Shown: in pieces, positions 44,401-45,539 of the stretch
Layout: every line of letters starts with the position of its first letter
Position numbering within the stretch: the first letter of the stretch is position 1
Source: Nitrososphaeria archaeon
GTDB taxonomy: Archaea > Thermoproteota > Nitrososphaeria > JACIWG01
Direction: 5' to 3'
Length of the DNA stretch: 64,000 nt
NCBI GenBank assembly: GCA_049969935.1
Contig: JBMFNX010000002.1
Span: 5,789-69,788, forward strand
Position numbers and translations under genes: made by a program
The notes under the pieces: model-generated
Database searches by the model: none
The model's input: only the letters and a program-made list of their open reading frames with translations
Told to the model about the DNA's origin: nothing

Positions 44401-45539
44401 AGAGCCCTTTCAAGAATTCTGCAACAAGGTCATCACGCATAGCGGTCAGCAGATCTGACAGCACCAGCTTCTTAGACTTCTTGAAAGAATGGTAAGAGAA
44501 GAGATCCTCAAAGAACTTTATGAGCGTGAGGCCTCCGTAATGGTCAACTCTCACACTAGTTTTGCCTGAAACTACTCTGCTATCCACGTTGAAAGCCTTT
44601 AGCAACGCCTGCTTGAATCGGAACAAGATGCGCAAGTTCGTGTTGGTTAAGGACGCCCTAGTAGTGCCGTCACCATATAGCAGACCTAGAGCATACATCA
44701 TAGCCTTAAATTCATCTATTGTCTTAGGGAGGTGGATCCTCTTTGACTGTCTGCCAAATCTTTTTAGCGAAGAGCGGTATAAGAGGACATCAATGGCATC
44801 ATATAGCATAGACTTATTGAGCCCTATCAACTGAGCTATACATAAAAGGTCCTTGAGGCGGTACCTCCCTAGCCTAACTCCTTGTCGAAAGCTTTCGTAA
44901 TCTAGCTTGCTGCCAATGCTCCTCCACACTGCCTTAATGCCTCTCTGAGAAAGAGTGGTTGCAATAGATGAAGCAAATGGCTCCAGTAGATATATGAGAT
45001 AATAATCGCGCTCCGAAAGTCTTTCAATGATCCTCGCCTTAACTTGATCCAGCTCTAAACCAACGGATTTTAAGAGCGAGGGTACAGCAACATAGACACC
45101 TGGAGTTAGATCAGAAGCCCTTATGGCCTCTAACAATCCAAGCTCTGACAAAGTGTAAAATGGATGTTCGGGAGTAGTTGAAACCTCAAAACCGTTTCTT
45201 AAACTGACTCGAATCAACTTGTTACTCTTAAGCTTCCAGACGTAAACCGCTTTCATATCTTTAATATTAAGCAAAGAGGGGTCCATAGAATCTACAAAAA
45301 CATCCTTCAAGGTGGCTCTCTTATCAAACCGCCCATAGCGCTCGTAAAGCACCTTAATCGGAAGAATCTCACCAGTAGATAATGTTACATAAGAATCTTC
45401 GCTCACACACTTACCATGATCTACATGGGCAACAACACCCAGATTATTCGGGTTTAGAGATTTTTCTCTAAACCTTTCGAATCTGGTCCTTGTTGCCTAT
45501 GATTTTTAATGCTTCTGCGGTAGTTTTATACCTTGGCAT
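41477..45539 (-). CDS. fusA: translation elongation factor aEF-2, interrupted by a 31-nt BHB intron (45445..45475) and a 613-aa intein (43571..45409); the mature protein is about 730 aa
   Basis: Exon 1 (45476..45539) encodes MPRYKTTAEALKIIGNKDQIR, then frame A hits UAG. Removing 31 nt gives ...DQIRNLGVVAHVDHGK-[intein]-TTMSDSLLAACGMLSPALAGQALALDY...NLIDTPGHIDF..., which aligns with Sulfolobus aEF-2 (MPRYKT...RVRNIGIIAHVDHGKTT...). Confidence 0.85.
43571..45409 (-). mobile_element. intein with LAGLIDADG homing-endonuclease domain inserted in the aEF-2 P-loop
   Basis: Host junctions are AHVDHGK|C at the start and HN|TTMSDSLL at the end. The Hint N-terminus is CVSEDSYVTLSTGE, the LAGLIDADG blocks are MMYALGLLYGDGTT and VAEFLKGLFDTDGTV, and the C-terminus is FVANGIIVHN+T. 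Confidence 0.85.
45445..45475 (-). other. predicted bulge-helix-bulge (hBHBh') pre-mRNA intron in aEF-2
   Basis: mRNA: CCAGA-UUCG-[AA|A]-GGUUUAGAGA-AAAA-UCUCUAAACC-CGAA-[UA|A]-UCUGG. This is a 5-bp outer helix, a 4-bp central helix, two 3-nt bulges on opposite strands, a 10-bp inner helix and a 4-nt loop. Cleavage after the second bulge nucleotide on each strand excises exactly 31 nt and restores the frame. Confidence 0.7.

Follow-up and report, generated by a model that had tools for sequence, protein, structure and literature searches.

The pre-mRNA intron in the cbf5 gene of Crenarchaeota (Watanabe et al., 2002; Yoshinari et al., 2006; Yokobori et al., 2009, PMC2738675) is short, lies inside an archaeal coding region, carries a motif of the bulge-helix-bulge (BHB) type, is patchily distributed across related lineages and is cut by the hetero-oligomeric splicing endonuclease. 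As of 2020, it was regarded as the sole mRNA intron of this kind besides a BHB intron in the 5' untranslated region of the Haloferax volcanii HVO_1309 mRNA, which was shown experimentally (Schwarz et al., 2020, PMC7714728), and a 2025 paper on archaeal splicing endonucleases cites only cbf5 papers for mRNA substrates. Here, we describe a 31-nt insert that splits the gene for archaeal elongation factor 2 (aEF-2) on the minus strand of a 64,000-nt stretch of contig JBMFNX010000002.1 from a Nitrososphaeria archaeon related to ammonia oxidisers (this whole stretch is referred to as the window), and that shares the first four of the listed properties with the cbf5 intron. Very probably, the insert is a canonical hBHBh' intron (outer helix, bulge, central helix, bulge, inner helix) of the tRNA type that depends on the splicing endonuclease EndA and the ligase RtcB. 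The full-text literature searched yielded no account of such an intron in either EF-2 or fusA. An initial sequence-only reading of this DNA had stated that archaeal mRNA introns are documented for very few genes, in agreement with that literature (PMC7714728).

Compared with cbf5, the affected gene encodes a translation GTPase instead of a pseudouridine synthase, and the lineage is Nitrososphaeria (Thaumarchaeota) instead of Sulfolobales, Desulfurococcales and Thermoproteales. The EF-2 motif is strictly of the hBHBh' form and half of it is built from constrained codons beside the P-loop, whereas many cbf5 introns reportedly have relaxed forms of the motif; splicing of the EF-2 transcript is deduced from sequence. 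The geometry is that of pre-tRNA introns at position 37/38, i.e. an outer helix, a 4-bp helix with an exonic 5' strand, two 3-nt bulges with cuts behind the second base and an inner hairpin (Marck and Grosjean, 2003). In contrast to pre-tRNAs, the intron resides in an mRNA, two coding segments take the place of the anticodon stem as the outer helix, and splicing would restore a reading frame and not an anticodon loop. HVO_1309 mRNA is a substrate of the archaeal splicing endonuclease, just as predicted for the EF-2 message, but there the open reading frame (ORF) is not interrupted, the organism is a euryarchaeon with a different type of EndA and the evidence is experimental, whereas that for EF-2 is comparative sequence evidence. 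Splicing of HAC1 and XBP1 by the endonuclease Ire1 and the ligase Trl1 or RtcB takes place at twin 7-nt loops and is regulated by stress. It resembles the EF-2 case in its independence from the spliceosome, a short intron, a shifted or restored frame, recognition of stem-loops and joining by a ligase of the tRNA type, and differs in the endonuclease (Ire1, not EndA) and in the RNA motif.

What is new is the gene and the lineage for an archaeal mRNA intron of the cbf5 type, the strict motif and its position next to an intein. The EF-2 insert would represent the second case of an ORF-splitting intron in Archaea, in an essential, highly expressed translation factor of a different major lineage. 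The comparative record is unusually clean, with a strict BHB, covariation and a codon choice dictated by RNA structure.

The split reading frame and the BHB motif

The aEF-2 gene was read from the sequence with its ATG at position 45539. The frame starting there encodes MPRYKTTAEALKIIGNKDQIR-K-V and then runs into a UAG codon at 45470..45468, leaving only a 23-aa product for the unspliced message. The frame encoding the P-loop (NLGVVAHVDHGK) is shifted by +1 from that of exon 1 and stays open as far back as 45496; it contains no ATG, GTG or TTG upstream, and the earliest usable start identified by the ORF finder is a GTG at 45406, past the P-loop. Between the two frames lie 31 nt (AGGUUUAGAGAAAAAUCUCUAAACCCGAAUA, 45475..45445), which hold the in-frame UAG. 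They separate exon 1 (45539..45476), comprising 21 codons plus the first base of the Asn22 codon and conserved in all intron-bearing loci, from exon 2 (41477..45444), which contains the remaining precursor ORF including its stop codon. Cleavage after the second nucleotide of both bulges excises exactly 45475..45445 and yields the junction CGA A^AU CUG (the caret marks the point of cutting or joining here and below), with a spliced reading of ...DQIR-N-LGVVAHVDHGK. The intron interrupts codon 22 (Asn) in phase 1. The spliced precursor ORF has 1343 aa, of which 730 remain after subtraction of the intein described below. In this 730-aa mature sequence, Pfam recognized all five EF-G/EF-2 domains (GTP_EFTU, EF-G_D2/GTP_EFTU_D2, EFG_III, EFG_IV and EFG_C); GTP_EFTU spans residues 19-254 of the spliced product, the G1 P-loop AHxDHGKT is intact, and identity to Nitrososphaeria EF-2 proteins amounts to 72-96%, which identifies the protein as a member of the aEF-2 family.

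The insert and its borders form the motif CCAGA/UUCG/AAA/GGUUUAGAGA-AAAA-UCUCUAAACC/CGAA/UAA/UCUGG at 45486..45439. Two 3-nt bulges (AAA and UAA) on opposite strands are separated by exactly 4 bp (UUCG/CGAA), and the same bulge and 4-bp geometry is present in all 28 distinct homologous sequences described below. The exonic half of the central helix (UUCG, 45478..45481, part of the codons AUU CGA) is invariant in 28/28 of these sequences, as is its non-coding, intronic half (CGAA, 45447..45450). The 5' bulge AA^A (45475..45477), with cleavage predicted between 45476 and 45475, reads AAA or AAU in all relatives, and the 3' bulge UA^A (45444..45446), with cleavage predicted between 45445 and 45444, has A, G or U as its middle base. 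The inner helix (GGUUUAGAGA/UCUCUAAACC with an AAAA loop, 45451..45474) has 10 bp and is backed by folding and covariation. The outer helix has a core of 5 bp (CCAGA, 45486..45482) that is extendable to 13 of about 15 positions, over which 45496..45482 (GCAACAAGGACCAGA; exon 1 codons GNKDQ-I) faces 45443..45429 (UCUGGGUGUUGUUGC; exon 2 codons (N)LGVVA). The relatives have outer helices of at least 3 contiguous bp, or of 5 bp interrupted by a single bulged U, together with inner helices of at least 3-15 bp. The sequence-only reading had proposed the N-terminus split over two frames, the 23-aa unspliced product, each helix, bulge and loop of the motif and the excision of exactly 31 nt by the endonuclease rule. 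All of this was confirmed at the coordinates given here, and the predicted product proved to be collinear with intron-less orthologues.

Homologous inserts and selection on RNA structure

DNA was compared for the loci of two of the closest proteins and for 74 species-representative genomes. Relatives were sought with the extein, as a query with the intein-containing ORF gave mostly intein-bearing proteins and only distant EF-2. An insert at the identical nucleotide and phase, after the first base of the Asn codon next to ...QIR, was present in 34 loci (29 distinct sequences) from Nitrososphaeria metagenome-assembled genomes (MAGs), produced by different groups and with different assemblers (SPAdes, MEGAHIT, JGI, Logan); L074 and L076, false positives of the motif script, were left out of these counts. 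All 34 inserts share UUCG AA^(A/U) GG...CC CGAA U(A/G/U)^A. Their lengths are 26, 29, 30, 31, 32, 37, 42, 43, 45, 49 and 63 nt, with 53 nt in addition in Nitrosocaldus-like contigs, and cover all three residues modulo 3. An in-frame stop follows within 2-6 codons of exon 1 in all inserts, including the seven whose length is divisible by 3. EF-2 identity across the insert-bearing loci is 72-96%, the 730-aa frames are intact, and each residue of the predicted spliced product has its counterpart, in the same order, in the 730-aa orthologues that lack an intron.

Carriers are Ca. Nitrosocaldus MAGs, one Nitrosomirales MAG, several MAGs labelled 'Nitrosopumilales' and the clade of the window, which comes from hot springs, peat and soil. 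Intron-less loci were found in Conexivisphaerales, Methylarchaceae-like genomes, Caldarchaeales and Nitrosopelagicus and also in Nitrososphaeraceae, which have full-length 733-aa gene calls. Alignment of homologous loci, one of the checks suggested with the original prediction, placed the insert at the same site in 34 loci and showed its absence from several related lineages. The BHB geometry is retained in all 28 distinct sequences, and the recurrence of the insert in independent assemblies argues against an assembly artefact.

Covariation was assessed on an alignment of the 28 distinct sequences (A1), in which counts ignore phylogeny. In this alignment, 87% of the cells were paired, vs 36-53% when the partner strand was slid by 1-3 columns, and the covariation score of 0.212 (0.107 in shuffles) was reached by 0/500 shuffles. 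Changes on both sides were seen in 6/9 inner-helix pairs, for example U-A/C-G/U-G, U-A/A-U/G-C/C-G and A-U/G-C. The constraint extends to the exons. The junction codons are ATT CGA AAT (I-R-N) in 34/34 intron-bearing genes, although CGA accounts for 4.9% of the other Arg codons in these same genes; intron-less orthologues use ATA, ATC or ATT, mostly AGA, AGG or AAG, and AAC or AAT for the three residues. Furthermore, the 15-nt exon flanks pair at 11.5/15 positions in intron-bearing genes vs 6.9/15 in intron-less ones specifying an almost identical peptide. Inner-helix compensation and constrained exon codons, both of which would be expected of a functional hBHBh' intron, imply selection on the RNA structure.

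Some further features of the alignment are recorded here. At columns 5/96 of A1 (window positions 45492 and 45433), two exon codons covary with each other: the pair is C-G in the window clade and U-A in the others, corresponding to Asn AAC with Val GTT and to Asn AAT with Ile ATT, respectively, and the amino-acid change accompanies the compensating base. The U at position 5 of the inner helix (A1 column 27, window position 45470) is invariant, even in nine sequences in which its partner is unpaired; in most introns the in-frame stop (UAG, UGA or UAA) starts with this U, and in several Nitrosocaldus introns UGG does. The loop of the intron is an A/T-rich stretch of variable length, with 43 vs 53 nt within one species at about 99% identity (L099 vs L103-L106), and in the 63-nt intron of L025 it is made up of repeated TTAA/TTAG units. 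Constraint is confined to the BHB itself and the base of the stem.

Intron-less contigs, competing explanations and the proposed splicing route

Two contigs of a Nitrosocaldus-like species, which does not belong to the window clade, lack exactly the predicted intron. They originate from IMG samples 3300043286 (Ga0450881) and 3300058672 (Ga0556636). L097 (Ga0450881_00664, 5.7 kb) and L098 (Ga0556636_003631, 4.1 kb) read CAGATTCGAA followed directly by ATTTTGGTGT (junction CAGATTCGAA^ATTTTGG), which is the junction given by the BHB rule within the 1-nt ambiguity caused by the flanking A residues. Both encode a full-length EF-2 of 730 aa, and the two proteins are members of one 90%-identity cluster. 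In the same species, 43 or 53 extra bases are present at the junction in no fewer than 13 genomic contigs with lengths of 20-118 kb; this count stems from the look-up of one 695-aa cluster member, and the inserts were read directly in five contigs (43 nt in L099, which was looked up separately, and 53 nt in L103-L106). Downstream of the junction, L098 differs from L103-L105 at 1 nt in 2,260. L097 terminates 2 nt before reaching the start codon of a convergent gene, and the first base of either contig lies no more than about 40 nt from where the upstream AsnC-family gene starts. Both have short chimeric 5' ends: L097 has a 46-nt copy of the beginning of the TiaS gene fused to the interior of the AsnC-family gene, and L098 carries a 67-nt internal duplication. 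In these respects, L097 and L098 resemble assembled cDNA of a spliced operon transcript. A scan of metagenomes for the spliced junction returned long genomic contigs of intron-less EF-2 of the type of ammonia-oxidizing archaea (AOA) only, and no cDNA of intron-bearing clades.

Several observations weigh against a BHB intron. L097 and L098 could instead be intron-less alleles. Genes for EndA and RtcB were not located; none is obvious in the window, and a search of the window for RtcB motifs returned nothing. The loose BHB pattern alone is no rarer than chance, with 6 matches on both strands of the window vs about 4.4 expected in shuffles when a 4-bp helix of Watson-Crick pairs only, a 5-bp outer and a 5-bp inner helix were asked for. 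Finally, RNAfold and RNAalifold extend the outer helix by two pairs and skip the 4-bp central helix, and because this helix never varies, covariation is uninformative on the choice between the two folds. In the folding check proposed with the original prediction, the BHB fold (-20.5 kcal/mol) lies within 0.5 kcal/mol of the minimum free energy (MFE; -21.0), but the MFE structure itself is the one with the extended outer helix. Folding of the 66-nt region is much more stable than that of shuffles (z = -7.5). When an inner helix of at least 9 bp was demanded, the EF-2 site remained as the sole match in the window, vs 0.05 expected. The five other loose matches were dismissed, as they lie within intact ORFs or on the non-coding strand. 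The Rfam scan of the window reported tRNAs only and no family at the intron site. The significance of the motif stems from its placement exactly where frame repair is needed, together with the comparative evidence. The proposal of a BHB pre-mRNA intron is supported by the at least 34 loci, the compensatory changes, the codon constraint, the collinearity with orthologues and the two intron-less contigs.

The two frames might in principle be joined without any RNA splicing, by a programmed +1 frameshift or by translational bypass over the hairpin. The frame offset in the window is indeed +1, and the stable, stop-containing hairpin where the frames switch bears a superficial likeness to T4 gene 60. 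However, the insert lengths fall into all three mod-3 classes and the seven that are divisible by 3 still contain in-frame stops, so that no single recoding rule fits. A frameshift product would have 9-20 extra residues before the P-loop that are absent from intron-less orthologues, a hop from CGA to the second CGA ends in the wrong frame, and what is conserved is the BHB and not a slippery site. Neither a constant offset nor a conserved slippery or take-off/landing sequence, as expected for programmed frameshifting or bypass, was found, and we regard recoding as extremely improbable. Even less credit can be given to a non-functional origin of the insert, whether within a pseudogene, as a small mobile palindrome or through an error of sequencing or assembly at the hairpin. 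In its favour, automatic annotation has the gene truncated at the N-terminus (685-719 aa), and the window ORF is called from a GTG inside the intein. Against this stand the same insert site in at least 34 loci of independent projects and assemblers with intact 730-aa frames, the identical 1309-aa product under three NCBI accessions and the selection on RNA structure implied by covariation and exon codon constraint; weaker evidence comes from the essential nature of EF-2 and the single EF-2 locus returned per genome.

Removal of the insert in another way, with a long outer helix enclosing a symmetric 5x5 internal loop and with another RNase and ligase or another cleavage register, has to be considered since MFE and RNAalifold favour the pairs U16-A85 and U17-N84 over the UUCG/CGAA helix, and since the A residues that flank both cut sites allow placement of the junction only to 1 nt. 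Yet the 3' bulge can have A, G or U in its middle, which gives U-U in four sequences, and the alternative pair is not maintained, whereas the non-coding CGAA is invariant and the exact complement of the exonic UUCG. BHB motifs are known for bad scores in nearest-neighbour models, as it is EndA that stabilises them. In addition, L097 and L098 have the junction predicted by the BHB rule, and the geometry equals that of a tRNA intron in the same window: tRNA-Gln(UUG) at 19269..19382 on the minus strand, found by Rfam and missed by ARAGORN, contains a canonical hBHBh' intron of about 41 nt at position 37/38 (GCGGG CUUU GG^A ... GAGG AA^A CCCGC). Removal by such a different route is thus very unlikely. 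The intron-containing tRNA-Gln also means that tRNA-splicing machinery must exist in this organism.

The preferred explanation, removal of a BHB intron by the tRNA-splicing machinery, would involve the following events. The pre-mRNA would be transcribed from a promoter just upstream of the ATG, and the outer helix would arise from base pairing between codons 15-21 in exon 1 and codons 22-27 in exon 2. Exonic UUCG and intronic CGAA would then provide the 4-bp central helix and the intron its inner hairpin, leaving two 3-nt bulges on opposite strands. EndA, which in Thaumarchaeota is of the (alpha-beta)2 type (PMC5829648), would cleave after the second base of each bulge, and RtcB would join the exons. 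The spliced mRNA would be translated into the 1343-aa precursor, from which the P-loop intein would excise itself to give the 730-aa EF-2; the peptide predicted for the mature protein after both splicings is DQIRNLGVVAHVDHGK followed by TTMSDSLL... The motif, its conservation, the covariation, the exon codon constraint and the exact junction are direct observations, from which we infer the action of these enzymes and splicing in vivo in the source organism. As unspliced RNA would give only the 23-aa peptide, EF-2 synthesis would be dependent on the tRNA-splicing machinery, and an essential mRNA would be among the substrates of EndA and RtcB in these organisms.

Splicing by this mechanism might in addition be rate-limiting or regulated and serve as a checkpoint that couples EF-2 supply to tRNA-splicing/RtcB capacity or, through the stability of the BHB, to temperature. 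Such a role is compatible with the persistence of the intron both in Nitrosocaldus and in the distant window clade although it could repeatedly have been lost, with the immediate in-frame stop in every intron and with the analogy to HAC1/XBP1 splicing by Ire1 and RtcB. On the other hand, Methylarchaceae-like MAGs, Conexivisphaerales, Nitrososphaeraceae and Nitrosopelagicus do without the intron with no visible consequence, and since an EF-2 gene that cannot be spliced would be lethal, no further cause is needed for the BHB to be conserved. A regulatory function therefore appears rather unlikely. Since the cultivated Ca. Nitrosocaldus carries the intron, the prediction of EF-2 splicing is directly testable.

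Intein, evolutionary history and public annotation

In a neighbour-joining tree of EF-2, which is not a species tree, the intron-bearing sequences fall into three groups interleaved with intron-less ones. The simplest reading would be one old gain followed by several precise losses, because the site, the phase and the boundary sequences are identical; most simply, the intron may be seen as an old insertion kept splice-competent by purifying selection. Some intron-less AOA genes keep ATTCGAAA(T/C), i.e. ATT CGA AA(T/C), at the empty site (L052 from Nitrosopelagicus and L082-L096, the latter having been chosen by that very pattern), and the rare CGA codon at this place may be the footprint of a precise loss via a spliced copy. 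A more elaborate scenario holds that the intron was ancestral before the split of Nitrosocaldus and the (non-AOA) window clade, was lost repeatedly by cDNA-like deletion with ATTCGAAAT 'footprints' left behind, and was kept elsewhere as a control of EF-2 that is conditional on tRNA splicing and RtcB, as in HAC1/XBP1, with the P-loop region here, within the same 100 bases, repaired a second time at the protein level by intein removal; we consider this scenario conceivable but improbable. In any case, these lineages offer a natural system for the study of intron gain and loss in Archaea.

The intein (43571..45409, minus strand) comprises 613 aa with a LAGLIDADG homing-endonuclease domain, as indicated by Pfam and sequence motifs. 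It is located directly after the P-loop Lys (AHVDHGK^CVSED...IIVHN^TTMSD), 35 nt downstream of the 3' splice site. All hallmarks of an intein are present, namely C1 (CVSED), TTPEH, VHN^T, LGLLYGDG and LKGLFDTDG, the last two representing the intact pair of LAGLIDADG motifs, and Pfam scored Intein_splicing at 5e-21 and LAGLIDADG_3 at 8e-23. EF-2 of this organism would hence need both RNA splicing and protein splicing. The intein is absent from the closest relatives (L001, L008 and L009, 95-96% EF-2 identity), while the same site is occupied in L042 and in EF-2 genes of DPANN (Woesearchaeota-type) archaea; its nearest relatives outside EF-2 are the aIF-2 inteins of Thermococcus. Like the EF-2 intein, P-loop inteins of archaeal translation GTPases (aIF5B/'aIF2'; PMC4760082) combine Hint and LAGLIDADG domains after the GK of the G1 motif, but here the host is EF-2 and an RNA intron is situated 35 nt upstream. 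EF-2 is absent from the table of frequent intein hosts in Novikova et al. (2016, PMC4760082). The EF-2 gene of MAG-19 (JACIWG01), which among GTDB representatives is closest to the window, is split over two contigs (L024 and L077), one of which is 100% identical over residues 171-730, whereas the other covers residues 1-147 at 93% identity and has a 30-nt intron and no intein. This suggests that a population mixed for presence and absence of the intein breaks the MAG-19 assembly at this point.

In public databases, the closest EF-2 proteins (95%, then 85-88%, and many at 77-78% identity) are 695- or 685-aa calls that start past the P-loop, and full-length proteins of 730 aa appear only at 79% identity to the window or below. 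Across the family, calls have 685-719 aa, many of them without a P-loop. For the window ORF itself (41477..45406, minus strand), MGB9724967.1 and other records give an EF-2 of 1309 aa whose GTG start codon lies within the intein. The RefSeq 'MULTISPECIES' EF-2 of Nitrosocaldus has 705 aa and begins with MAHVDHGK, and the entry SPC34446.1 for the cultivated Ca. Nitrosocaldus cavascurensis has 695 aa and begins with MSDSLL; contigs that encode exactly the N. cavascurensis protein carry a 37-nt BHB insert (L100). The RefSeq, GenBank and IMG entries for EF-2 of these lineages thus systematically lack the N-terminus and often the whole P-loop, an error that affects phylogenies and marker-gene sets in which EF-2 is used.

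A TATA-like box (TTTTAAAA, 45571..45578, minus strand), which from its sequence is a putative promoter element, is found about 35 nt upstream of the EF-2 ATG and is equally placed in L001 and L005. The gene neighbourhood (45628..49365 on the minus and 39987..41189 on the plus strand) is kept in these same two loci. There, ECF/ABC transporter genes and genes for an ERCC4/XPF-type nuclease and a SIS-domain protein lie upstream of EF-2 and Orc1/Cdc6 lies downstream; in Nitrosocaldus-like genomes, EF-2 is placed after the AsnC-family gene and TiaS instead.

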